Positions 1 through 45,712 of a DNA stretch of 64,000 nucleotides are shown piece after piece. The translations under genes and the position numbers were made by a program. The stretch comes from Polyangiales bacterium (GTDB taxonomy: Bacteria > Myxococcota_A > Polyangia > Polyangiales > Houyiibacteriaceae), in contig OZ245758.1 in assembly GCA_965227405.1 (NCBI GenBank), positions 1,449,693 through 1,513,692 on the forward strand. Reading direction: 5' to 3'. Each line of letters begins with the position of its first letter. The stretch's first letter is position 1. The notes under the pieces are model-generated. The model had not been told where the DNA came from and searched no databases. It worked only from the letters and a program-made list of their open reading frames with translations.

Positions 1-3000
1 GGTCATGCAAGCACCAACGCTGGAGCCACAAGCCGCTCCACCACCGGGGTCGCCCTCATCGACCGTACCGTCGCAATCGTCGTCACGTCGGTTGCACACC
101 TCGACCGCGGGGTCGGCAATGTCACAGGCGTATTCGCAGCCCGTCGCCTCGATTCCGTCGATGTCGTAGAAGCCGTCCTCGCAGGCACCCAAGCGGCACT
201 CGCCGGCCGAGCAGGTTGCTGCGGCATTGAGGAAGCGACACGTGCGACCGCAGCTTCCGCAGTTCTCGATGTCCGTGTCGAAGTCGAAGTCCTCGTCGAC
301 GTTGCCGTCGCAATCGTTGTCGCGGAAGTCGCAGATCGAGTCGTCGGCTCCTGTCGGAATACACCGGTATTCACAGCCATTTTCAGGATCTCCGTCGATG
401 TCGAAGAACCCGACATCGCAGCGATCGATGCCGCACACGCTGTCGATGCACGAAGGGAACGCGGCGGGCGGTGTACACGCCATTCCGCAACCACCGCAGT
501 TCTCGGTGTCCGTCGTGGTGTCGATGCCCTCGTCGATCAGCTCATCGCAGTCGTCGTCGCGCTCGTTGCAGAGCTCGGGGGCTCCGGGAACGCAACCCGC
601 GTCGATGTTGGCGTCAAAGCCTGCATCGAGATCGGCATCCGGGGTTCCGGTATCGGGTCGCGTTCCGTCGACTTGAGCGTCGACCGGGGGAGGACCTGCA
701 TCTTCGCAATCGATGCAGAAGGGTTCGACGTCACATCCGCCTAAAAGGAAGAGAGCGCCGAGTCCGAGAAGGGCCGCGATGCGGCCTCGGACTTTTCCCG
801 AGGACGTCGCGACCGAAGAGGCCTTTCCGTTCTTGCGACGGCGACGCCAGCCCACCAGGACGAACATCACCAAACCGAGCGCCCACGGCGTGGGTGCTTG
901 TGATGCCGGCGTACCTGGAACGGCACACGCGCATCCGCCACCGCCGGCGCCGAGAAGGCGCGTTCGATCGTCGCCTCCCGGTCCAGCATCCAGACCCCCT
1001 CCATCGACGCCGGCATCCGGCATGCTCATCTCGACACACTCGCCAGCTTCACACACCTGCTCGCCGGGACAGTTCAGTCCGACACAAGGATCCGCTTCGC
1101 AATCACCCGTCAGCGGATCGCAGATGGTCATCGCCGGGCAAAGCACACCGCGACACATGTCCTCGACGCAGCTTCCGTCGGTGGGATCGCACGCTTCGCC
1201 TGCAGGACAGCTGACTCCGCCACATGCGTCGTCCACGCAGACACCGCGCGCACAGCGCTCGCCGTCCGGACATTCGACGCCCGCGCAACTCGCGACGCAC
1301 TCGCCGTCGATACACGCTTCGGTCTCGTCGCACTCCACGCTGGCGCACGGATCGGTCTCGCACTCGCCGGTTTCGACGTTGCAGACCTCACCGGTCTCAC
1401 AACCCAGTGCGCGACAGCTGTCCTCGACACAGGTGCCGGTGTTCGGCTCGCAAACCGTTCCGTCGGCACACACCGTCCCGTCGCACGGGAAGGTACACGC
1501 GTTGTTCTTGCACGTGCACGAAGGCGTGTCGTCGTCCGGACTACACAGCACTTCGCCATCGCGTTCGATCGTTTGCGGCGAACACGTTTCGGGTGTGCAG
1601 GCCTCGGCGACGCAGAAGCACTCCTCGCCAACCTCGAGCGGCGTGCGGCCGGTCGGACACACAAATCCAAACTCGCTTCGCTCACACGGCAGCGCGCACT
1701 GGCAGTCAACGCAGGAGCTACCTTCCGGACACAACGCGCCGTCAGCTTCTTCGTCGACCGATCCGTCGCAGTCGTTGTCCTCGCAGTCGCAACCTTCGAT
1801 GCCGGGAGGCACCTCACCCACACAGACTTCGCGTCCGTCGATGCACTGCGACACACCTTCCATGCAAAGGCCTTCGTCAGACCCGCAGGCCATGCCGAGC
1901 GGCAAGCCCTCGTCGATCGTGCCGTCGCAGTCGTCATCAAATGCGTTGCAGACCTCTTCCACGGGGCCGATTTCACCGTCGCAAACAGTCATTCCATCGC
2001 GACAAATCGTGATTCCCGGGCTGCACAAGCCTTCCGCCGAGCCGCAGGGAGCACCCACGCCCAGACCGTCGTCGGCAAGGCCGTCACAGTCGTTGTCGAG
2101 CCCGTCGCAGATCTCTTCCGTGGGTCCGACATCGCCGACACACATCAACGCGCCACCGACACACTGGATCATGCCGGTCGAGCACTCGCCGGTATCGGAA
2201 CCGCACGTCGTACCTACATCCGGATCAGTTTCGTCGACTCTGCCGTCGCAGTCGTTGTCATCGCCATCGCAACGTTCGATGCCCGGTCCGATTTCACCGA
2301 TGCACGCGCCGAACGATCCCGACGTACACACTTGAACACCAGCACGACAGACACCTTCATCGGATCCGCAAGACCGACTCTGTCCATCCACGCGGCCATC
2401 ACAGTCGTTGTCGAGTCCGTCACAGACTTCCGGACCACCCGTGGTGGCAGTACAGCCCACCCATGTTCCGGCCATGCACGTTTCGGTACCGGCCATGCAC
2501 TCGCCGATATCCGATCCGCAACTTCGTGTTAGGCCCTCGTCCGTACTGCCGTCGCAGTCGTTGTCCATGTTGTCGCAGGTTTCTGCGCCCGTTGGGACGC
2601 AGCCCATACACACGTCACCTTCGTCGATGACGCCATTGCAGTTGTTGTCGAGACCATCGCAGACCTCGGCGGGAGGCGTTCCGCACAAACCACAGGCGTT
2701 CAACGGCTCATCGGCGGTGCCATCAAAGCAGTTGTCGTCCGACATATCGCAGTCGTCACCGGGGTTTGTGCAGTAGTCGAGACTCGCGGTGGGAGCGCCA
2801 AACGTGCCGTCCAAATCACAGTATTTCTGGAAGCCCTCGTCGATCAGACCGTCGCAGTCGTCGTCGTCTCCATCGCACACTTCGCTCAACAAGGTGTCCG
2901 CAATGATTTGCGAGAACGCGAGCGCGACACCTTCTTCACTGGTTGCAGGAAGCGCTGCGGTGGTTCCACCCGCAGCAGCAATCTGGTTCGCTTGACCGAT

Positions 3001-3615
3001 CAGACCCGCATTGCTTCCGAAGACGATCACGTGGGTCATGATGTCTTCGTTGGGTCCTCCCGCGATGGGCGTGTTTCGCAACCGAGTCGTCGCAGCGAGA
3101 GTGTTGGTCAGGTTGTTCGCGGTGTCGCAACAGGGTTCGCCATCGTGCAAGAGAATGACGCGGTACGGACGACATCCACGTGCAGGATCTCCCTGAACTG
3201 GTCCCGTCGCACTTTGGTAGTACGCGCGCACGTTATCCAACGCGTTCCGGATCGGTGTGACACCGCCTGCCGTCAGCTCCGTCGAGCCGACGAAATCAAC
3301 CCATTGAAGAATCGAAGGTTGGTTGTCCTCCGCAATCGGTGCGTGGATGGTGGTTCCCGTGCCGTACTCCTTGAATGAAGTCAGGCCGAACGTGACATCA
3401 CCAAAGCCATTGACGACTTGCTGCAACGCACACTTGGCATCGTTGAGTCGCGTACGCGGCTGACCACAGCTGTTGTTGCCACTGCCGGTCGACGAACCCA
3501 TCGATCCGGAGTCATCGAAGATGACCATGAAATACGGTTTGATCTGCGTCTGCGCAGAGACCGGGGAGGCTGCTGCAACCCACAGCAAGACAGCCGCCAA
3601 ACACCAACGCACCAT
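1..3615 (-). CDS. Large secreted protein, partial (C-terminus beyond the window start). Cleavable signal peptide, a von Willebrand factor A domain, then more than 20 Cys-rich DNDCDG-type (MopE-like putative metal-binding) repeats.
   Basis: Minus frame is open from ATG 3613-3615 to position 1 and has no stop in the window, so it is absent from the ORF track. Manual translation gives MVRWCLAAVLLWVAAASPVSAQTQIKPYFMVIFDDSGSMG (signal peptide plus VWA MIDAS DxSxS), then VILLHDGEP, then repeated CDGLDNDCDGxxDEG / CGSDxGxC modules. Plus-strand long ORFs here are S/P/T-rich antisense artefacts. Confidence 0.8.
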   Translation of the reverse strand, partial: MVRWCLAAVLLWVAAASPVSAQTQIKPYFMVIFDDSGSMGSSTGSGNNSCGQPRTRLNDAKCALQQVVNGFGDVTFGLTSFKEYGTGTTIHAPIAEDNQPSILQWVDFVGSTELTAGGVTPIRNALDNVRAYYQSATGPVQGDPARGCRPYRVILLHDGEPCCDTANNLTNTLAATTRLRNTPIAGGPNEDIMTHVIVFGSNAGLIGQANQIAAAGGTTAALPATSEEGVALAFSQIIADTLLSEVCDGDDDDCDGLIDEGFQKYCDLDGTFGAPTASLDYCTNPGDDCDMSDDNCFDGTADEPLNACGLCGTPPAEVCDGLDNNCNGVIDEGDVCMGCVPTGAETCDNMDNDCDGSTDEGLTRSCGSDIGECMAGTETCMAGTWVGCTATTGGPEVCDGLDNDCDGRVDGQSRSCGSDEGVCRAGVQVCTSGSFGACIGEIGPGIERCDGDDNDCDGRVDETDPDVGTTCGSDTGECSTGMIQCVGGALMCVGDVGPTEEICDGLDNDCDGLADDGLGVGAPCGSAEGLCSPGITICRDGMTVCDGEIGPVEEVCNAFDDDCDGTIDEGLPLGMACGSDEGLCMEGVSQCIDGREVCVGEVPPGIEGCDCEDNDCDGSVDEEADGALCPEGSSCVDCQCALPCERSEFGFVCPTGRTPLEVGEECFCVAEACTPETCSPQTIERDGEVLCSPDDDTPSCTCKNNACTFPCDGTVCADGTVCEPNTGTCVEDSCRALGCETGEVCNVETGECETDPCASVECDETEACIDGECVASCAGVECPDGERCARGVCVDDACGGVSCPAGEACDPTDGSCVEDMCRGVLCPAMTICDPLTGDCEADPCVGLNCPGEQVCEAGECVEMSMPDAGVDGGGLDAGPGGDDRTRLLGAGGGGCACAVPGTPASQAPTPWALGLVMFVLVGWRRRRKNGKASSVATSSGKVRGRIAALLGLGALFLLGGCDVEPFCIDCEDAGPPPVDAQVDGTRPDTGTPDADLDAGFDANIDAGCVPGAPELCNERDDDCDELIDEGIDTTTDTENCGGCGMACTPPAAFPSCIDSVCGIDRCDVGFFDIDGDPENGCEYRCIPTGADDSICDFRDNDCDGNVDEDFDFDTDIENCGSCGRTCRFLNAAATCSAGECRLGACEDGFYDIDGIEATGCEYACDIADPAVEVCNRRDDDCDGTVDEGDPGGGAACGSSVGACMT

Positions 3616-15387: not shown

Positions 15388-16247
15388 GTACCGCCGCAAA
15401 GCCTGCTGGAACCGAGAAAAAGCTCGATCCGAACAACCCCGCTCATGCCTCGCATATTGGCGACTGGCGCGAGTGGCGGCCGAGTTTGGTCGACCGCGCA
15501 CTCAGTGGCTTGTGTTGGGGAACCGCAGTGTCGTGGTTGGTGGGATGGACCAACGTCCTGACGCCGATGAACTACATCTTCGGTGCGCACAAGATCCCAG
15601 TGCATCGACTGAGTCAGTTCTTCTCGCGTGGATTGGTCGCGTCCACGTTTTCGTCGTGGAAGGCCTGGGTGCATCCCGATGTGCGTGACGACGAGCAGTA
15701 CATTTTCTGCCAGAACCACATCAACCACTTCGACTTCATCACGATGTATCCCGCCACCCCGCACTACAAGCAGGGGCTCGAGCTGGAGACGCACTTCAAG
15801 TACCCCGTGTACGGCCAGTTCATGAGTAGTCGAGGTACGGTCCCGGTTCCGGCGAATCGCGACAAGCGCTTCGATGCGGTGCGCGAAGGCATCCGCACGG
15901 AGCTTGAGGAAGGCCGAAGCATTCTGGCGTTTCCTGAGGGCACGCGGACATTGAGCGGTCGCGTCGGACCGTTTCGGTCGGGTGTGTTTCGCGTGGCGCG
16001 CGATGTCGGCGCAAAGGTTGCCCCCACCGCTGTGGTCGGGATGTACGACGTGATGCGCAAGGGTTCGCTGATGTTGCGGCCTTTCGGTGATGTCCGCGTG
16101 TTCATCGACAAACCCGTTGATTTCACGGGTGTTTCCGACGACGAGCTACCCGCCAAGATCGACGAGGTTCGCAACGCGATCGTCCGTCGTGTCGACGACT
16201 ATTTCGAGGAGAAGCAGTCATGCCAAGCACCGAGGAAGCGCGGATGA
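15384..16247 (+). CDS. 1-acyl-sn-glycerol-3-phosphate acyltransferase family (PlsC/AGPAT-like) protein
   Basis: ATGA overlap with the kinase stop. NHINHFD (HX4D catalytic motif) and AFPEGTR (motif III). Confidence 0.85.
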   Translation: MSTAAKPAGTEKKLDPNNPAHASHIGDWREWRPSLVDRALSGLCWGTAVSWLVGWTNVLTPMNYIFGAHKIPVHRLSQFFSRGLVASTFSSWKAWVHPDVRDDEQYIFCQNHINHFDFITMYPATPHYKQGLELETHFKYPVYGQFMSSRGTVPVPANRDKRFDAVREGIRTELEEGRSILAFPEGTRTLSGRVGPFRSGVFRVARDVGAKVAPTAVVGMYDVMRKGSLMLRPFGDVRVFIDKPVDFTGVSDDELPAKIDEVRNAIVRRVDDYFEEKQSCQAPRKRG

Positions 16248-16870
16248 GTTCCGTGGATCGTCGTACGGAGCGCGCGACGCGTAAGCGTCGTGATCGCCGT
16301 AAGGCGATCCTACAGGCCGCCCGTCACGTGTTTGCGGAGAAGGGATTTCACCGCACGCACGTCAGCGACATCATCGAAGCGGCGAACATCGCACGCGGCA
16401 CGTTCTACCTGTACTTCGAGTCGAAGAACGCGATCTTTCTGGAGCTGCTCGAGGGTCTGATCGGCGAGGTGCGCGAGAGTATCGTCGGCGTGGATACCAA
16501 GGAAGGCGCACCTCCCGTGCAGCTTCAGCTCGCGCATACATTGCGGCGCGTGTTGGCCACGGTGGTCGAGAACCGGGATCTGACGCGTATTTTGGTGCGT
16601 GAGGCCGTGGGTCTGGGCGAAGACGTCGATGCGCGACTCAACACGTTCTACACGAACTTGTTGGAGTACATCCGGCAGGCTCTGGACAACGGGCAAGAGA
16701 TGGGGATTCTGCGCGAGAGCATGGATACGCATCTCGCATCACTCTGTGTGCTGGGAACGATCAAGTCGTTCATGGAGCAGCTGGTGATGGACGAAGACGG
16801 ATTGGGTGATGACGTCGACCGATTAGTGGTGGCGGTGCTCGACTTTAATCTTCGAGGGTTGCTGAAGTAG
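16244..16870 (+). CDS. TetR/AcrR-family transcriptional regulator
   Basis: HTH RKAILQAARHVFAEKGFHRTHVSDIIEAANIARGTFYLYFESK. ATG 16244 overlaps the AGPAT stop (ATGA). The track offers an alternative start at 16220. Confidence 0.85.
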   Translation: MSSVDRRTERATRKRRDRRKAILQAARHVFAEKGFHRTHVSDIIEAANIARGTFYLYFESKNAIFLELLEGLIGEVRESIVGVDTKEGAPPVQLQLAHTLRRVLATVVENRDLTRILVREAVGLGEDVDARLNTFYTNLLEYIRQALDNGQEMGILRESMDTHLASLCVLGTIKSFMEQLVMDEDGLGDDVDRLVVAVLDFNLRGLLK

Positions 16871-16918
16871 TTTCGGTTTCGGTTTCGGTTTCGGTTTCGG
16901 TTTCGGTTTCGGTTTCGG
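16871..16918. repeat. (TTTCGG)x8 perfect hexanucleotide microsatellite immediately after the TetR stop
   Basis: Read directly: tttcgg repeated 8 times, then gttcgggg. Confidence 0.9.
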
Positions 16919-17243
16919 GTTCGGGGAATTGGGGCCCCGAGGTCGAGCGCAGGAAGGGGGGCATCCTCCTCTCACCGTCGCTGTGTTTGCGTCGTCCGCC
17001 TTCTGTAAGCGCTGCGTCTTTCGCTGCGCCTGAGAGTCGTCAACCCCCGCATCCTACGCTTCCCTCGGGGGTCGTTGGTTCCAACGCACTCCGTCGCGGC
17101 TCCAGATCGCTGCCGGGATCACCGAACACCGCTTGTGTGATCAATGCGCGTCGTCGTCCACTGCTCCGCAGTGTCGCCGCCGCGAATTCGGAGCCGCCCC
17201 GCTGGGCGGCAGTTGCAACGTCGACTGCCGTCGTCCTTCAACC

Positions 17244-17497
17244 GCAATCGCTGTCGCTGCCGCTGTCGCTGTCGCGATCGGCCTTCGCTGTCGCAGTCGC
17301 GATCGCAATCGCCATCGCAGTCGCAGTCGCGATCACAATCGCCATCGCCTTCGCAATCGCCTTCGCAATCGCAGTCGCGATCACAATCGCCATCGCAATC
17401 GCCATCGCAGTCGCCTTCGCCTTCGCTTTCTCCGTCGCTGTCGCCGTCGCTGTCGCGGTCGCAGTCAAAGCAGTCAAAGTTGCGATCGCAGTCGAAG
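17244..17497. repeat. About 250-bp degenerate hexanucleotide array (GCNATC/GCNGTC)n. All six frames are open and dipeptide-repetitive: (AI/AV)n, (SQ/SR/SP)n, (DC/DG/DS)n.
   Basis: Read directly (gcaatcgctgtcgctgcc...gcgatcgcaatcgccatcgcagtcgcagtcgcgatcacaatc...). Track ORFs 17119..17520(-), 17144..17584(+) and 16987..17535(+) all derive from it. Confidence 0.85.
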
Positions 17498-17580
17498 AGC
17501 CCACCAACGCAAATCTTCAATCAAGGTCGAGTTAATCAATACGCATTCCTAGTTCCCAAGAAACCGCCTATAACCCCCAC

Positions 17581-17994
17581 ATGAAACACGCCCTCTGCGT
17601 CCTCGCGCTCCTCGCTTGCGGCTCGTCAGACGAAGCCACCACTTCATCCTCCACCGGCGGTGAACAAGAGGGTCCGTGCCCGTCTGACTTTGATGAGTGC
17701 TACGACGCAGACTCGCGCGCGGAGTGTCTCTCGGTCGCTGAAACGTGCCCGGAAGAGAACATCGTGGTCTTGGAAAGCTGCCCGGTTCAGTACGCGTGCG
17801 ACGAACCCAGCGTTGCTCCTGCGGATGGCGACGAGCCTGTCGCTTCCGACAACGGCGACACCTGTGCGGGATACAGCGTCACCGACTCGTGTATGAACGA
17901 AGAGAACTTCGCAGCATGCCAAGCAGCTGAAGCCCAGTGCCCAGGTTCGGTCGCCGTGATGGAGAGCTGTCCACTGCAGTTCGCGTGCGAATGA
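17581..17994 (+). CDS. Small secreted lipoprotein with two tandem copies of a 4-Cys module
   Basis: [16 protein letters not shown] lipobox. Module 1 is [28 protein letters not shown]. Module 2 is [26 protein letters not shown]. Confidence 0.6.
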
Positions 17995-19085
17995 TCTCGC
18001 CGCTCTCCATTCCTGAACGCGTTCTCATGGGACCTGGTCCGTCCCATGTTCCTGCTTCCGTTCTGTCCGCGATGGCGCGTCCCACTATCGGGCATCTTGA
18101 TCCGGTCTTCCTGCAGATCATGAACGAGATCGCCGAGATGCTGCGCACACTCTTCGGCACCACCAACGCACTTACGATGCCGATGAGCGGCACCGGATCA
18201 GCCGGCATGGAAACCTGCTTGGTCAACCTTCTTGAACCAGGCGACCGCGCGATCATCGGCATCCACGGCGTGTTCGGCGGTCGTATGGCCGAGGTCGCCC
18301 GACGTTGCGGTGCCGAAGTCGAGACCGTCGAAGTCGAGTGGGGCAAACCGCTCGACCCCAACGACTTCCGCAAAGGCGGCCAAGCCAAACTCATCGCACT
18401 CGTGCACGCCGAAACATCCACGGGTGTCCTTCAGGACCTGTCGCCCTTTCGCTCTATCGCCGACGAGCTCGGTGCACTTCTCGTCATCGATGCGGTCACG
18501 TCACTCGGCGGTGTCCGCGTGGATCTCGACACGCACGGTATCGACGCAGCGTACTCGGGATCGCAAAAGTGCTTGAGTGGACCACCGGGTCTATCCCCCG
18601 TTTCGTTTTCGACGCGTGCGCTCGACGCGATGAAGTCACGCAAGAGTCCCGTTCAAAGCTGGTACTTGGACATCGGCCTGATCGCCCGGTACTGGGGCGA
18701 GGAGCGCGCGTACCACCACACCGCACCCATCAACTCGCTCTACGGACTCCACGAAGCGTGTCGACTGGCGTGTGAAGAAGGGCTCGATGCACGGGTGGCT
18801 CGTCACACATCGATGAGCACGCGATTGATCACCGGCCTGCGCGAACTGGGTCTCAACGTTGCTGGTGATGAGAGTACGCGCTTGCCTCCACTCACACTCG
18901 TTCGAACGAACGAGCTCGATGAGGGCGCGATTCGTCGCTCGCTACTCGACGAATACGGTTTGGAGATCGGCGGCGGACTCGGCGCGTTCAAGGGTCAAGC
19001 GTGGCGAATCGGGCTAATGGGCGCGTCCGCTCAACCTCGATTCGTCGACTTGTGTTTGAGTGCGCTACGAAACGCGATGCGCTGA
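17991..19085 (+). CDS. Class V aminotransferase (alanine--glyoxylate / serine--pyruvate aminotransferase family)
   Basis: ATGA overlap. [19 protein letters not shown]-terminus and [12 protein letters not shown] (PLP-Lys), typical of AGXT-family enzymes. Confidence 0.85.
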
Positions 19086-41024: not shown

Positions 41025-42857
41025 TCAGTGTGCGTGGCCGTGACCGCCATGCCCGTGACCGCCATGCCCGTGACCGCCATGTCCGTGACCGCCATGTCCG
41101 TGACCGCCGTGTCCGTGACCATGTCCGTGGTGCCCGCCGAGTGCTGCTAGCCAACCGCGTAGACCCGAGAACCACACCCCTGCACCGGCGAGCAAGCAGA
41201 GCAACGCAAGTCCCACGTTGGCCCACCAGCCGTGAGCGTGTGCATGACTGTGATACGCAACGGGAACCGTCGGATCGAGCGCGTTCAACCCCACGCCAAC
41301 ACCCCACGCCACAACAACCAGACCCGCAATGGCACCCAGCGCTGCACGAGCTCCATACGCCGCACGAAGCCAGCCCACCGTGGCCAGATTTGTGGCGGGG
41401 CCAAGCAGCAGCCCGACGAGCACAGCACCCGGTGAAAGACCTTTGCCGATCAAGACCGCGGCCAAGGGCGTCGCACTTGTCGCGCACACGTAGCTCGGCA
41501 CAGCGACCATCGTCACGACCAGGAAGTCGGCGAACACGCCCCACCCTTCGAAGGCATCGCTCGGAAGCACGGCCTGCAGATACGCCGCGGCGAGCAAACC
41601 AACCGCGGTCCAAGGCAGCGTGTGTCGCAACACTTCGTCGAGCTGCGCAAAGAAGAACTTCAGGCGCGAGCCCTCAGGTCCTGTATCGACGACTGGACCG
41701 ATCTCGGGCGCAATGGTCTGACGCTTTTTCAGCAACGAGGAGACCAGTAGTGCCGCCACGAGCGAGACCGCCATGGCCGCGAGCAAGCGCGTCCACGCAA
41801 AGGTCCAACCGAGGAACTTCACCGAGAGCGCAAAGGTCTCGATGCCCAGCTCAGGCGTCGCTAGGAGCAACGCAACCACCAACGCTGGCGCCGCTTTGCG
41901 CTGCTTCAGTGATTGCGCGACAGGCAAGATCCCGCACGCGCAAATCGGCAAAGGCAGCCCCAACAGCACGCCCTTTCCAGCTAGGCGGAACGACGAACCA
42001 CCTCGCAGCCAACGATCTGGAATGTGTCGTCCGAACGTTTGGAGAATCGCCGCAAGCGTGAGTCCGATCAGGAGAACCGGCGCCGTTTCCAAACTCAACT
42101 CGAGCAACGCTGCGCCCGTGTCCGCACGAACGCTCTCGGCAAGATTGATCCCACCAACACCAGGGTGACCTTGCCCAAGAACCACCAAGGTCACCCCCGC
42201 AGCAGCCGCACCAAAATCGGTGAGCCGAGCTGCCCAACCGGTTGGCATCGCGGCAGTCCACCCGTGCATCACCACGTGGAGGAGCAAACCCGCCGTGGCG
42301 GCCGACACCCAGGGATGCGCAGCCATCAGCGCATCGGTGGGCACCAGGTTCACCAACAACACCCCAACCACGGCACACGTGGCGAGAATCCCGGCGCGCA
42401 TCAATGCGTGCTTCATCCCTCGAGGGAGAAACGCGAGCACGACCATCACAGTCACGGGAACCGCATGCGCAGCAACCGCAAAGAGAACATCAAACGATGG
42501 CGCGACCGGACCCACGCCGGGCCAAATCGGCGAAGCAAAGTGACCCAGCGCAATCCCGTCGGCGACCTTGTGGAGACACAGGCCCACAAAACCAAGCTCG
42601 AGACCGAGTGCACGGTTGCTCGACACGTGCGCCCATCGATCCAAGCCCGCGGCGAAAACCAGACTCAGCGCAAACACGACAAGCGCAACCAAGCCAACGC
42701 CGGCGAGTGCTTCGGGCAGCAGGTGCACGAGCACCACACCCAACGCAGACACAACAGCAAAGGTCTGAATGCCCGTGAGTGCGGTGGCTGTCCGCGAGAG
42801 CGCGAGCAGCGTGCCGAAGACGACAGACCCGATGGCGATGGCCAACGCGATGGTCAT
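41025..42857 (-). CDS. Metal transporter fusion: N-terminal ZIP-like (ZupT-like) half, C-terminal DUF318/ArsP-type permease half (CxC motif), and a C-terminal (HGHGG)n His-rich tail
   Basis: ZIP-like HKVADGIALGH. DUF318-like LPICACGILPVAQSL. C-terminus GHHGHGHGHGGHGHGGHGHGGHGHGGHGHGGHGHAH. About 14 TM segments. Confidence 0.7.
   Translation of the reverse strand: MTIALAIAIGSVVFGTLLALSRTATALTGIQTFAVVSALGVVLVHLLPEALAGVGLVALVVFALSLVFAAGLDRWAHVSSNRALGLELGFVGLCLHKVADGIALGHFASPIWPGVGPVAPSFDVLFAVAAHAVPVTVMVVLAFLPRGMKHALMRAGILATCAVVGVLLVNLVPTDALMAAHPWVSAATAGLLLHVVMHGWTAAMPTGWAARLTDFGAAAAGVTLVVLGQGHPGVGGINLAESVRADTGAALLELSLETAPVLLIGLTLAAILQTFGRHIPDRWLRGGSSFRLAGKGVLLGLPLPICACGILPVAQSLKQRKAAPALVVALLLATPELGIETFALSVKFLGWTFAWTRLLAAMAVSLVAALLVSSLLKKRQTIAPEIGPVVDTGPEGSRLKFFFAQLDEVLRHTLPWTAVGLLAAAYLQAVLPSDAFEGWGVFADFLVVTMVAVPSYVCATSATPLAAVLIGKGLSPGAVLVGLLLGPATNLATVGWLRAAYGARAALGAIAGLVVVAWGVGVGLNALDPTVPVAYHSHAHAHGWWANVGLALLCLLAGAGVWFSGLRGWLAALGGHHGHGHGHGGHGHGGHGHGGHGHGGHGHGGHGHAH
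41031..41120. repeat. 15-bp tandem repeat (gtgaccgccatgccc, about 6 copies) encoding the (HGHGG)n tail
   Basis: Read directly. Confidence 0.85.
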
Positions 42858-42913: not shown

Positions 42914-45712
42914 CTAGGCGTCCGGTGCGGTAACCTTTTTGGCGGCTTTCTTCTTCGCAGCCTTCTTGGTCGTCTTCTTCGCGGCCTTCTTGGTCGTCTT
43001 CTTTTTGGCGGCCTTCTTGGTCGCCTTCTTCGCAGTCTTCTTCTTAGCTGCCTTCTTCGTCGTCTTCTTGGTCGACTTCTTCTTGGCTGCCTTCTTGGTC
43101 GACTTCTTCTTCGCCGCCTTCTTTTTCTTCTTCTTCGGGTTCGCGGCTTCTCGCTCCCGACGAAGCTGCAGCAACTCGGCCGCGCGGACGACGTCGATGG
43201 TCTTCGGATCGTCGCCTGTACGCAGCGACGCGTTGGTATCGCCATCCGTCACGTAGGGGCCCCAACGACCCTCCTTCAACACGATGGGCTTCTCGCTTAC
43301 CGGGTCGGTCCCGATCTCGCGCAGCGGCGGCTTCTCCACCTTGCCGCGTCGCTTCTTCGGTTGCGCCAAGAGTTTCAGCGCATCCTCAAGTGTGATCGTA
43401 AAGAGCTGGTCTTCGGTTTCGAGACTGCGGTTCTCTTTGTTGTGAACGATGTAGGGCCCGTAGCGTCCGTTGAACGCCATCACCGGCTCACCGTCCGCAG
43501 CGATGCCCACCTCACGCGGTAGCGAGAGCAACTTGAGCGCCTGGTCGAGCGTGAGCTCTTTCGGCTCCATGCTCTTGAGCAACGACGCTGTCTTCGGCTT
43601 CTCCTTGGCGTCCTTGCCACCCTCGCCGAGCTGTACGTACGGCCCGTAGCGACCCGCCTTGAGGAAAATCGTCAGGCCCGTGTCGGGATCGGCGCCGAGT
43701 TCACGGTCATCCGAAGGCGCGTCGAGAAGTTCGATCGCTTTCGCGAGATCCAACTCGTCCGGTGCGAGGTCGGGTGGAATCGACGCGGTCTTCTTGTCGT
43801 CGTCGACACCGGTCTGCACGTAAGGGCCGTACTGACCCATCCGAATCACAACGGCTTTGCCGTCCTCGGTTTTGCCGAGCGGAAACGTCTCGAGACGCTT
43901 CACCTCTTCGAGGTCGATCTCGTCCATCTTGGTTTTGACGCGGGTCTCCAAACCCTCGTCGCCCAAGAAGAAATCCTCGAGGTACTTGCTGCGCTTGCCC
44001 GACCCACTCGCGATCGCATCGAGGTCATCCTCCATGCGCGCGGTGAACTGGTAGTCCACCAAATCGCCGAAGTGCTCCTCGAGCAGACGCACGACCTGGA
44101 ACGCCTTGAACGAAGGAACGAGTGCACGTCCCTTCTTCCACACGTACCCACGGTCTTGAATCACGGACATGATCGACGCGTAGGTCGACGGGCGTCCGAC
44201 ACCCAACTGCTCCAGCATCTTGACCAACGACGCTTCGGTGAAACGCGCAGGTGGCTTGGTCTCGTGACCGGCCACCTCAAGGTCCGTTGCGGTGACCTTC
44301 TGGCTCTTCTTGAGCGGCGGCAGTTGCTTCTGGTTCTTGGCGAGATCCTTTTCGGGATCGTCGCTGCCTTCCACGTACGCCTTCTGGAAACCAGGGAAGG
44401 TAATGGTCTGACCACTCACACCAAAGAGCACCGACTTGCCGGCGGTGGTCTTGGCTTCAAGCGTCACGCTCAGGGTCTGTCCCTTCGCATCGGCCATCTG
44501 TGAGGCCACGGTGCGCTTCCACACCAGCTCGTAGAGCTTGGCTTCTTGCGCACCCACTTCCTTGGCCACCTGCGCAGGCATCTTGAACTCGTCGCCCGCG
44601 GGGCGAATCGCCTCATGAGCCTCTTGCGCGTTCTTGACCTTGCGCTTGTAGATGCGCGGCTCTTTCGGGACGTAGTCGTCGCCGTAGAGCTCTTTGATCT
44701 GCTTGCGCGCGGCGTCCAATGCCGTGTCCGAAAGCGTAGTGCTGTCGGTACGCATGTAGGTGATGTAACCGGTTTCGTAGAGGCGCTGCGCAACACGCAT
44801 TGTGCTGCGTGCACCCCAACCAAACTTGCGGCCTGCTTCCTGCTGAAGCGTCGAGGTCATGAACGGCGGCGCCGGTCGACGCGTCAAAGGACGCGTTTCG
44901 ACGGAAGCAACCGTAAAGCTCTTGCCCTTGAGATCGGTCGCCAATGTGTTGGCTTCCGCCTCGCTGAGGCACACGACATCTTTCTTGAGCTTGCCGTCCG
45001 CACCGAAGCTCTGACCGGTCGCGACGCGCTTGCCGTCGAACTCTTTGATCTCGGCTTCGAACTTCTCGTCCTCTTGCGTGACGAAGAGTCCGTCGAGATC
45101 CCAATACGACGCACGTACGAATGCAATGCGCTCACGCTCGCGCTCAACCACGATGCGCGTCGCAACACTCTGAACGCGACCCGCGGACTTACCGCGGCTC
45201 TTACGGCGCGACATGTCGCTCATCGCAAAGCCGTAGAGTCGGTCGAGAATGCGTCGTGCTTCTTGCGCGTCGACCAAACGCGTATCGATCTCGCGCGGAT
45301 TATCGACGGCCGCGAGAATCGCTTTCTTGGTGATCTCGTGAAACACCATGCGCTTCACGGGCACCTTGGGGTTGAGCACCTCCACGAGGTGCCACGCGAT
45401 GCTCTCCCCTTCGCGGTCCTCATCAGTCGCGAGCAGAAGTTCATCGGACTGCTTCAGAATCTTCTTCAGCTGCGCGATGTGCTTCTTGCGATCCGGGGAC
45501 ACGATGTAGAGCGGCTTGAAGTCGTCCTCCACATCGACCGCGTAGGTCTTGATGTAGGTGTTCTTGGACTTGACCTCTTTGGTGAGCTCCGAGGGCCGCG
45601 CGAGATCGCGGATATGCCCAATGGAAGACTCCACCACGAAGTCAGAACCCAAGTATTTCCCAATGGTTTTGGCCTTGGCGGGAGACTCGACGATGACGAG
45701 GGCGCGGGACAT
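42914..45712 (-). CDS. topA: DNA topoisomerase I with a Lys-rich (AAKKK/TKKAAKKK)n C-terminal tail
   Basis: Toprim N-terminus MSRALVIVESPAKAKTIGKYLG...GHIRDL. Type IA topoisomerase core. About 90-aa Lys/Ala/Thr tail. Confidence 0.95.
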   Translation of the reverse strand: MSRALVIVESPAKAKTIGKYLGSDFVVESSIGHIRDLARPSELTKEVKSKNTYIKTYAVDVEDDFKPLYIVSPDRKKHIAQLKKILKQSDELLLATDEDREGESIAWHLVEVLNPKVPVKRMVFHEITKKAILAAVDNPREIDTRLVDAQEARRILDRLYGFAMSDMSRRKSRGKSAGRVQSVATRIVVERERERIAFVRASYWDLDGLFVTQEDEKFEAEIKEFDGKRVATGQSFGADGKLKKDVVCLSEAEANTLATDLKGKSFTVASVETRPLTRRPAPPFMTSTLQQEAGRKFGWGARSTMRVAQRLYETGYITYMRTDSTTLSDTALDAARKQIKELYGDDYVPKEPRIYKRKVKNAQEAHEAIRPAGDEFKMPAQVAKEVGAQEAKLYELVWKRTVASQMADAKGQTLSVTLEAKTTAGKSVLFGVSGQTITFPGFQKAYVEGSDDPEKDLAKNQKQLPPLKKSQKVTATDLEVAGHETKPPARFTEASLVKMLEQLGVGRPSTYASIMSVIQDRGYVWKKGRALVPSFKAFQVVRLLEEHFGDLVDYQFTARMEDDLDAIASGSGKRSKYLEDFFLGDEGLETRVKTKMDEIDLEEVKRLETFPLGKTEDGKAVVIRMGQYGPYVQTGVDDDKKTASIPPDLAPDELDLAKAIELLDAPSDDRELGADPDTGLTIFLKAGRYGPYVQLGEGGKDAKEKPKTASLLKSMEPKELTLDQALKLLSLPREVGIAADGEPVMAFNGRYGPYIVHNKENRSLETEDQLFTITLEDALKLLAQPKKRRGKVEKPPLREIGTDPVSEKPIVLKEGRWGPYVTDGDTNASLRTGDDPKTIDVVRAAELLQLRREREAANPKKKKKKAAKKKSTKKAAKKKSTKKTTKKAAKKKTAKKATKKAAKKKTTKKAAKKTTKKAAKKKAAKKVTAPDA

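Follow-up and report, generated by a model that had tools for sequence, protein, structure and literature searches.

A lineage-specific noncoding compound tandem repeat at a hypervariable intergenic junction in a Polyangia (Myxococcota) bacterium

INTRODUCTION

The intergenic SSR/VNTR loci of bacteria, which serve in MLVA typing and abound, for instance, in Burkholderia mallei/pseudomallei, consist of head-to-tail units lying between genes, arise by slippage, differ between strains, and break short-read assemblies. In the contingency loci of Neisseria, Haemophilus, Campylobacter, and other host-adapted bacteria, perfect or near-perfect tracts of short units, likewise differing between strains, are found near surface-protein genes, placed either within the coding frame or in the promoter, between its -35 and -10 elements. 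Tandem units of the GAY-NGC type, which read as NNTCGC on the opposite strand, encode the acidic (Asp/Glu-Gly/Ser/Ala/Thr)n linkers seen in secreted proteins and lipoproteins, those of myxobacteria among them; these linkers occur in real ORFs after signal peptides and contain neither Cys nor Arg. The rut regions at which Rho loads are untranslated, exceed 80 nt, contain more C than G, have little structure, and are rich in YC dinucleotides; they are not normally tandem repeats. We found no literature specific to myxobacterial microsatellites, and to our knowledge Polyangia are not known as a repeat-rich clade.

Here, we describe a repeat-bearing spacer in a 64-kb window of a Polyangia genome, the window being the whole stretch of DNA that was analyzed. 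An earlier reading of the letters alone (the original prediction) had judged the spacer to be probably noncoding and its repeats to be a classic slipped-strand contingency element. We find that the feature is real but ordinary, namely, a lineage-specific noncoding compound tandem repeat at a hypervariable intergenic junction. We consider it likely that its 710 bp are noncoding and were recently gained in one lineage of an uncultured-type Polyangia (Myxococcota) bacterium, and that they represent neutral slippage DNA that would likely uncouple the downstream genes from the preceding operon.

RESULTS

The spacer and its flanking genes

The spacer begins directly after the TAG stop (16868-16870) of a plus-strand gene for a TetR-family regulator (16220..16870), which is in the ORF list, matches Pfam TetR_N (E=3e-17), and is syntenic in the related contigs L082, L084, and L093. 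This gene is the last of a lipid-related operon coding for an acyl-CoA synthetase, a DAG-kinase-like protein, an acyltransferase, and the TetR protein. On the right, the spacer is bounded by a plus-strand gene for a Cys-rich lipoprotein (17581..17994), present in the ORF list and among the genes annotated in the source genome, with an aminotransferase gene downstream of it. The intergenic gap measures 710 bp and holds two hexamer tracts; the ORF coordinates thus bear out the earlier placement of the repeats 3' of the operon and 5' of the lipoprotein gene. The lipoprotein signal sequence ends in ...|GSS, its homologs are 62-84% identical, and in L096, a contig of a close strain, the same protein is encoded with 12 synonymous differences in 414 bases. 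The gene is under strong purifying selection, and the protein is not variable itself.

A perfect tract and a degenerate array

The first tract (16871..16924, no strand assigned), defined from the sequence, TRF, and shuffles, comprises eight TTTCGG units with zero mismatches (16871-16918) and one variant unit, GTTCGG (16919-16924). Its first base is the base right after the TetR stop, as the original prediction had stated for its perfect (TTTCGG)8. TRF reports a period of 6 with 9.2 copies and 97% matches, and a pattern of three TTTCGG units is matched 7 times in the 64-kb window against 0.00 expected in shuffles. The tract is separated from the lipoprotein ATG (17581) by about 656-660 bp.

A gap of 318 bp, close to the predicted ~320 bp, leads to the second tract, a degenerate hexamer array of 37 NNTCGC units (17243..17466, no strand assigned) delimited by TRF, register alignment, and shuffles; the number of units had been put at about 40. 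The array had been described as (GCNATC/GCNGTC)n, and while its existence is upheld, its constant core is better given as NNTCGC. TRF finds a period of 6 with 37.2 copies and 74% matches, and a four-unit TCGCNN pattern is matched 29 times, every time within 17248-17462, against 0.02 expected in shuffles. No further copies of either hexamer array were found elsewhere in the 64 kb. The array ends 114 bp before the lipoprotein ATG, and a one-base insertion (C17282) shifts its register after the first six units.

The variation in this array is unevenly distributed. Mismatches at the successive positions of NNTCGC number 24, 21, 1, 0, 4, and 2, such that 45 of the 52 deviations from the consensus fall at positions 1-2. 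Even with the 13 unique unit types counted once each, 16 of 22 deviations are at these positions (simulated P about 0.001). The TCGC core is accordingly near-invariant across the array, with the two N positions free. Such a restriction of variation to two of six positions exceeds simple neutral decay and hints at constraint or coding ancestry, although block duplication of founder units explains part of the pattern, both here and in a second array, L003 (see below). A period of 30 outscores the period of 6 (TRF 190 versus 96), pointing to higher-order blocks. Moreover, a 24-bp block, GCAGTC-GCGATC-GCAATC-GCCATC, occurs three times (17295, 17325, and 17373), with two copies sharing the same TCAC variant. 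This threefold occurrence indicates that the array grew through the duplication of multiunit blocks. For both the TTTCGG tract and the long array, neither strand folds better than shuffles, no stable single-strand structure being found in either, and hairpin-driven expansion was rejected on this basis.

The unique middle and the right flank

The nonrepetitive middle of the spacer (16925..17242, no strand assigned; 65% G+C), characterized by codon scores and homology searches, has no relative that blastn or tblastx could detect, either elsewhere in the window or among the fetched loci (about 1 Mb), and a plasmid search with the spacer returned no match. An identity as a REP/MITE-type mobile or dispersed element was rejected, as neither the 64 kb nor the fetched loci nor plasmids contain another copy. 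A CRISPR identity was likewise dismissed: the period is 6, versus a spacer-repeat period of >20 nt. In Rfam, nothing passed a curated threshold. The only matches were to two plant miRNA models and scored far under the respective gathering cut-offs, and a known RNA family was rejected on the basis of these sub-threshold low-complexity matches. Just 5' of the long array, the MFE and centroid folds agree on a plus-strand hairpin (17205..17232) with an 11-bp G+C-rich stem, GGCGGCAGTTG / CAACGT loop / CGACTGCCGTC. The hairpin has no U-tract, and a terminator scan detected no canonical intrinsic terminator in the spacer.

The right flank (17467..17580, plus strand) is distinct in composition, with about 48% G+C and a C-rich/G-poor plus strand, and contains a 9-bp unit, GCAGTCAAA, present twice, and the palindrome TTGCGATCGC. 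A scan of 16500-18100, covering promoters of the sigma-70 type only, found no such promoter; a promoter belonging to the lipoprotein gene itself would likely lie in this flank. From the start of the array to the ATG (17243-17580), the C/G ratio of the plus strand is 1.55-1.84, which ranks among the highest 1% of all 200-nt windows across the 64 kb, and the corresponding RNA, with a fold z of +0.93, is no more structured than shuffles.

No evidence of translation

The original prediction drew attention to the coding potential of the long array while judging it probably noncoding, a view with which the codon scores, database look-up, homology searches, and Pfam all agree. Under a codon log-odds model for which 21 window genes served as the training set and control genes score positive, the middle (16925-17242) gives -0.17 to -0.41 bits per codon across all six frames, and the right flank (17467-17580) is negative in all six as well; GC3>GC2 periodicity is absent from both regions. 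Inside the array, two frames score slightly positive, (Ala-Ile/Val/Phe) on the plus strand and (Asp/Glu-X) on the minus strand, but these scores reflect the composition of the repeated unit alone. The statement that every frame is open through the array holds for five of the six, one minus frame having two stops. The translations themselves are as had been described, being (AI/AV/AF)n and (SQ/SR/SP)n on the plus strand and (DC/DG/DR/DS)n on the minus strand. At the C17282 insertion, however, every frame that the repeats encode is broken, (DC)n giving way to (RQ)n and (AV)n to (SL)n.

Exact look-up recovered none of the six spacer ORFs tested in a collection of 15 billion proteins that contains the flanking TetR and lipoprotein of the same 9.07-Mb genome, which is a single contig of 9,074,070 bp. 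In a word-indexed search of 5.8 billion proteins, the (DC)n ORF had no match at E<=0.01 and the (AI)n ORF matched only a few low-complexity hypothetical proteins. An exhaustive HMMER search of 1.84 billion representatives with the (DC)n ORF gave 14 weak matches (best E = 2e-6); all five that were inspected are Cys-free acidic (DG/DA/DS/DT)n linkers. The (DC)n proteins that the original prediction had proposed to look for in proteomes thus did not materialize, such linkers being all that was seen among the matches inspected, and neither an (Asp-Cys)n nor an (Ala-Ile)n protein family was found among the 5.8 billion and 1.84 billion proteins or in Pfam. Against Pfam, no spacer ORF scored above the cut-off, the one sub-threshold match being to TrAA12 (21.1 bits versus 30.9), an unrelated family. 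There was also no recognizable match to a metallothionein-like or Cys-rich metal-binding peptide family, and no conserved Cys pattern in the relatives. A lead from another contig, L164, in which (DC)n seemed to lie in a long ORF, was set aside, as the plus-strand (SQ)n frame there reads like the true protein; that contig is presumably eukaryotic.

It had also been suggested that the minus-strand (DC)n echoes the DNDCDG repeats of the gene at the start of the window (1-3600, minus strand), which codes for a vWA domain and MopE-type (PF11617) repeats with CDGxDNDCDG motifs. This does not stand: blastn and tblastx give no significant match between the spacer and that gene, and the period of the spacer repeats is 6 nt versus about 120 nt for the ~40-residue motif of the MopE-type gene. 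We therefore rejected the idea that the array and the MopE-repeat gene are homologous, the likeness being compositional only. The exact look-up, protein searches, HMMER, Pfam, and codon model together led us to reject the coding hypotheses for all spacer ORFs. On this sequence evidence, we take neither strand of the spacer to be translated and no frame to be a gene; the (Asp-Cys)n ORF is an artefact of period-6 DNA.

A recent gain at a variable junction

Relatives of the locus were sought as syntenic contigs from 90%-identity clusters of the TetR protein and the downstream aminotransferase. No close relative exists among the species-representative genomes, in which the best TetR match (37%) is to Polyangiaceae MAGs. 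Repeats after the TAG are confined to the two closest strains, L093 (94.6% TetR DNA identity) and L001 (95.5%). In L093, the TAG is followed by (TTTCGG)4 ATTCGG, and in L001 by eight mixed GTTCGG/TTTCGG/TGTCGG units, both contigs ending within the tract. Three versions of the TTTCGG tract are thus seen in three strains with a TetR DNA identity of at least 94.6%, those of L001 and L093 being known only to their contig ends. The tract is polymorphic between strains, which is the outcome predicted from slippage for a comparison of the perfect tract across strains. L001 and L093, both metagenome contigs from other samples, bear TTTCGG-type units after the same TAG, which independently supports a real tract over an artefact of assembly.

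A further contig from the same sample as L093, L096, starts at the equivalent of window position 17519, and the segment 17519-17580 is conserved in it, its roughly 62 bases differing by a single substitution and one additional C. With L093 ending in the left tract and L096 beginning near-identically at 17519, a second strain probably shares the spacer, the comparison between strains covering its two ends only. L096 also has a 3.4-kb MopE-repeat gene inserted ahead of the aminotransferase.

The TetR-lipoprotein junction differs in nearly every relative. In three cases, the TetR gene is followed by the lipoprotein gene after a short spacer devoid of repeats: 16 bp in L094 and 35 bp in L082/L083 (TetR DNA 82% identical in each) and 64 bp in L264 (lipoprotein 62% identical). 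In L084 (TetR DNA 85% identical), the junction spans 418 bp and includes an extra gene for a 121-aa lipoprotein-like protein, and in L085-L092 (83%), it spans 6 kb with three minus-strand genes and no lipoprotein gene. Minus-strand genes for secreted proteins occupy the same junction in some relatives. Since relatives retain the gene pair with 16, 35, and 64 bp and no repeats, about 690 bp can be ascribed to a recent lineage-specific gain. The lipoprotein and aminotransferase genes of the relatives with spacers of 16-64 bp look like operon members. The possibility that the spacer is a remnant of one of the junction genes (the 121-aa gene of L084, the three-gene block of L085, or the MopE gene of L096) was rejected, as tblastx gave no signal.

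Similar arrays elsewhere

Among the fetched loci (about 0.9 Mb besides the window), arrays of period 6/7 with at least 6 units occur in six loci. For Myxococcota-like contigs, two arrays were checked, and both proved to be acidic repeats that are part of a coding sequence, namely, SE/TE in an 848-aa protein (L007) and D/R (L002). A metagenome scan recovered at least 120 (TCGCNN)>=7 arrays; among those listed, the majority are built from one unit type only, and many are within long ORFs, antisense of (D/E-G/S)n. A viral scan yielded 47 (TTTCGG)>=5 arrays, 35 of them within long ORFs, where they usually read as (ET)n or (PK)n. The claim that such microsatellites are rare in bacteria therefore holds in part: short tandem repeats are generally depleted in bacterial genomes (PMC12699852), yet these motifs recur in the metagenome and viral scans, mostly within long ORFs, as coding linkers would be. 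The motifs are not exotic; the presence of two noncoding tracts in one bacterial spacer is less usual.

The nearest structural counterpart is a compound array in a Polyangia MAG (JAUHZF010000204.1; L003 4827-5129), which consists of 33 degenerate units of CTCG+NN, i.e., with a constant four-base core and two variable positions. It has a higher-order period of 30-36, is joined to a near-perfect (GAACCTC)14 tract abutting the stop codon of the upstream gene, and is intergenic, as is the spacer studied here. It differs from the latter in its unit sequences, in the lack of unique DNA between the tracts, and in its opposite strand bias, and the organism and locus are unrelated (TetR 35% identical). 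On the strand that encodes the genes beside it, the L003 array is rich in G, and hence a role in Rho loading is not a general property of such arrays.

DISCUSSION

Origin and consequence of the spacer

We propose that both tracts grew in 6-base steps by replication slippage or unequal recombination. Under this scenario, (TTTCGG)8 would be the young tract, still perfect and strain-variable, and the NNTCGC array an older one, built from block duplications and by now presumably too degenerate for frequent slippage. The repeats are most likely near-neutral passengers whose spread is limited by selection, acting on the TetR stop at the left end and on the region of the lipoprotein start at the right.

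Their presence would probably have regulatory consequences. As the transcript of 17243-17580 would be C-rich, G-poor, unstructured, and untranslated, operon read-through would likely be terminated by Rho; we predict that Rho would load on the roughly 700 nt of untranslated RNA beyond the TetR stop, of which the C-rich part makes up the final 340 nt. The lipoprotein and aminotransferase genes would then rely on a promoter in the 114 bp of low G+C content before the ATG. If this reading is true, the locus offers an example of an operon tail cut loose by the recent gain of repeat-rich noncoding DNA.

Alternative readings

In line with the contingency element of the original prediction, the locus could be a tunable spacer, in which slippage of one or both tracts changes the spacer length and thereby switches or tunes lipoprotein expression. 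The differences of the perfect tract among three close strains, the hypervariability of the locus among relatives, and the downstream lipoprotein, which belongs to a typical target class of phase variation, would all fit such a role. However, the perfect tract adjoins the 3' end of a different gene and is 660 bp away from the ATG, and the nearer array is just 74% matched and stops 114 bp short of the ATG. No sigma-70-like promoter spans either tract, in relatives, 16-64 bp free of repeats suffice between the two genes, and the lipoprotein, under strict purifying selection, is not itself variable. We accordingly regard a classic slipped-strand contingency element as quite unlikely. The array has also to be considered as a coding relic, that is, a pseudogene of a minus-strand acidic (Asp/Glu-Gly/Ser)n linker from a secreted protein or lipoprotein, in which past selection would have left behind the pattern of two free positions out of six. 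On the minus strand, 18 of the 37 units read as DS, DG, EG, or ES; the best HMMER matches, P0033 and P0034 (E about 1e-4), are linkers that follow lipoprotein signal peptides; most of the listed metagenome TCGCNN arrays are antisense of (D/E-G/S)n in long ORFs; and relatives have minus-strand secreted-protein genes at this very junction. Yet 12 units read as Asp-Cys and 5 as Asp-Arg, which real linkers do not have, and tblastx detects no remnant of the remaining gene. Furthermore, a decaying pseudogene should vary at all six positions, and the minus strand has neither a signal peptide nor a start context. Such an ancestry, too, appears unlikely.

A living small protein, in the form of either a cytoplasmic metal-binding (Asp-Cys)n peptide (ORF 17119-17520, minus strand) or a hydrophobic (Ala-Ile/Val/Phe)n peptide (ORF 16987-17535, plus strand), strikes us as extremely improbable. 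Both ORFs are open, codon scores within the array are slightly positive in both frames, and all variation in the plus frame is synonymous (GCN) or conservative (Ile/Val/Phe), mimicking purifying selection. Against this, both ORFs have TTG starts and no Shine-Dalgarno sequence, are unannotated in the source genome, and are absent from relatives; their nonrepeat parts score negative for coding, the C17282 insertion breaks the (DC)n and (AV)n frames, and no homolog was found in 5.8 billion or 1.84 billion proteins, nor any (DC)n protein. Alternatively, the regularly spaced UCGC/TCGC cores might titrate or position an RNA- or DNA-binding protein, in which case Rho loading would be a selected property. 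A core tetranucleotide kept in 37 units beside two free neighboring bases is the pattern of a repeated site, the RNA is unstructured with a strong excess of C over G, and a second compound array with a constant four-base core exists in an unrelated Polyangia MAG. But the core of that array is a different one and its strand bias runs the other way, Rfam offers no family at its curated threshold, conservation does not extend past very close strains, and, with sites every 6 bp, each would face the side of the DNA helix opposite to that of its neighbor. We therefore assign a very low probability to a functional RNA or binding array. More broadly, there is a very low probability that the spacer and the L003 array are members of an undescribed class of compound intergenic hexamer minisatellites in Polyangia, with a constant four-base core, two free positions, and a near-perfect stop-abutting tract, which would be maintained as adjustable insulators between transcription units beside fast-evolving surface-protein loci, working through the loading of Rho or the binding of some protein to the array.

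Significance and comparison with known systems

With neutral slippage DNA as the favored reading, the locus marks a junction at which close relatives bear different secreted-protein genes. For genome annotation and proteome mining, it is a caution that ORFs as attractive as (Asp-Cys)n and (Ala-Ile)n are here artefacts created by DNA with a period of 6. The fixed core with two free positions, common to this array and an unrelated one in Polyangia, is the sole feature that is possibly worth more work.

Set against the systems introduced above, the locus shares with contingency loci a perfect tract of short units near a surface-protein gene that differs between strains, but its tracts lie neither in the frame of a gene nor in any recognizable promoter. 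With the acidic linkers, it has in common the class of DNA motif, whereas the array in the window has no surrounding gene and reads in part as the Cys and Arg that those linkers lack. The resemblance to rut regions is compositional only: the segment 17243-17580 is untranslated, longer than the 80 nt expected of them, richer in C than in G, unstructured, and rich in YC dinucleotides, yet, unlike rut sites, much of it is a tandem repeat. The locus also resembles the intergenic SSR/VNTR loci. Here, too, head-to-tail units are arranged in tandem beyond chance and outside any gene, variation between strains is seen in the TTTCGG tract, and the locus breaks short-read assemblies and could be used as a strain marker. 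In contrast to those loci, it combines two unrelated hexamer tracts in one spacer, the longer of which is degenerate around a fixed four-base core.

Gene content at the TetR-aminotransferase junction

The stretch from the TetR gene to the class-V aminotransferase gene (window 16871-17990) is a hot spot of gene content, as seen when it is set against L082, L084, L085, L094 and L264 (contigs of relatives), L095, and L096 (a contig of a second strain). In the relatives, the two flanking genes may enclose the small Cys-rich lipoprotein gene by itself, an additional lipoprotein-like gene of 121 aa (L084), three minus-strand genes (320, 1138 and 471 aa) without the lipoprotein (L085), or a 1130-aa MopE-repeat lipoprotein inserted 3' of the small lipoprotein (L096). 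The last of these contigs starts at the equivalent of window position 17519, in unique sequence about 20 bases past the last repeat-like sequence and not within a repeat. This placement may be a sign that the second strain's sample holds several coexisting variants, which differ upstream of that position.

The lipoprotein gene (17581-17994) differs from its counterpart in the second strain (L096 64-477) at 12 nucleotides, all of them synonymous. Identity of the protein despite these differences places the small Cys-rich lipoprotein under strong purifying selection, while its surroundings have been reshuffled. A Shine-Dalgarno sequence is absent before the lipoprotein ATG; in its place stands a YTAYAAC-like motif, 6-9 bases 5' of the start codon and conserved in all relatives compared (window 17560-17580; L082 8662-8678; L084 9055-9069; L094 902-917) in the versions CTATAAC, GTACAAC, GTACAAG and CTACAAC.

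Coding repeats in the window

The window that holds the spacer arrays also contains a coding tandem repeat, an array of 15-bp units on the minus strand (41038-41120, within 41025-41120; 5.5 copies, 97% matches). It encodes the His/Gly-rich C-terminal tail (GGHHGHGHGHGGHGHGGHGHGGHGHGGHGHGGHGHAH) of a 610-aa polytopic membrane protein (41025-42857, minus strand); the tail has the look of a metal-binding extension of a permease. Also on the minus strand, 27/39/66-bp repeats (42935-43136, within 42914-43201) code for the Lys/Ala/Thr-rich C-terminus of a 932-aa ORF (42914-45712); this tail reads KKAAKKKSTKKAAKKK... and, in our reading, resembles a basic repeat of the histone-H1/AlgP type.

The giant Cys-repeat gene that the original prediction placed at the window start corresponds to a minus-strand gene (1-3600, continuing past the window start) for a very large secreted protein, in which a vWA-like N-terminal region is combined with many CDGxDNDCDG (MopE-type) Cys/Asp repeats and other Cys-rich repeats. 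The echo of this gene proposed for the spacer array was rejected as kinship, the two being unrelated.

Similar repeats in other genomes

Tracts of (TTTCGG)>=5, that is, of at least five units, were found in 47 viral contigs from IMG/VR (L097-L143), giant-virus MAGs among them. In about 20 of these (4-8 kb, 43-49% G+C) the ORFs flanking an (ET)5 repeat are arranged in nearly the same way, suggesting a single, widespread family of phage proteins that contain a Glu-Thr linker. In a contig of a Polyangia MAG (L003 4827-5129), an intergenic compound array consists of (CTCG+NN)33 followed by (GAACCTC)14, the latter tract leading directly into the upstream gene's stop codon. This array has the same architecture as the window spacer but is built from different repeat units.
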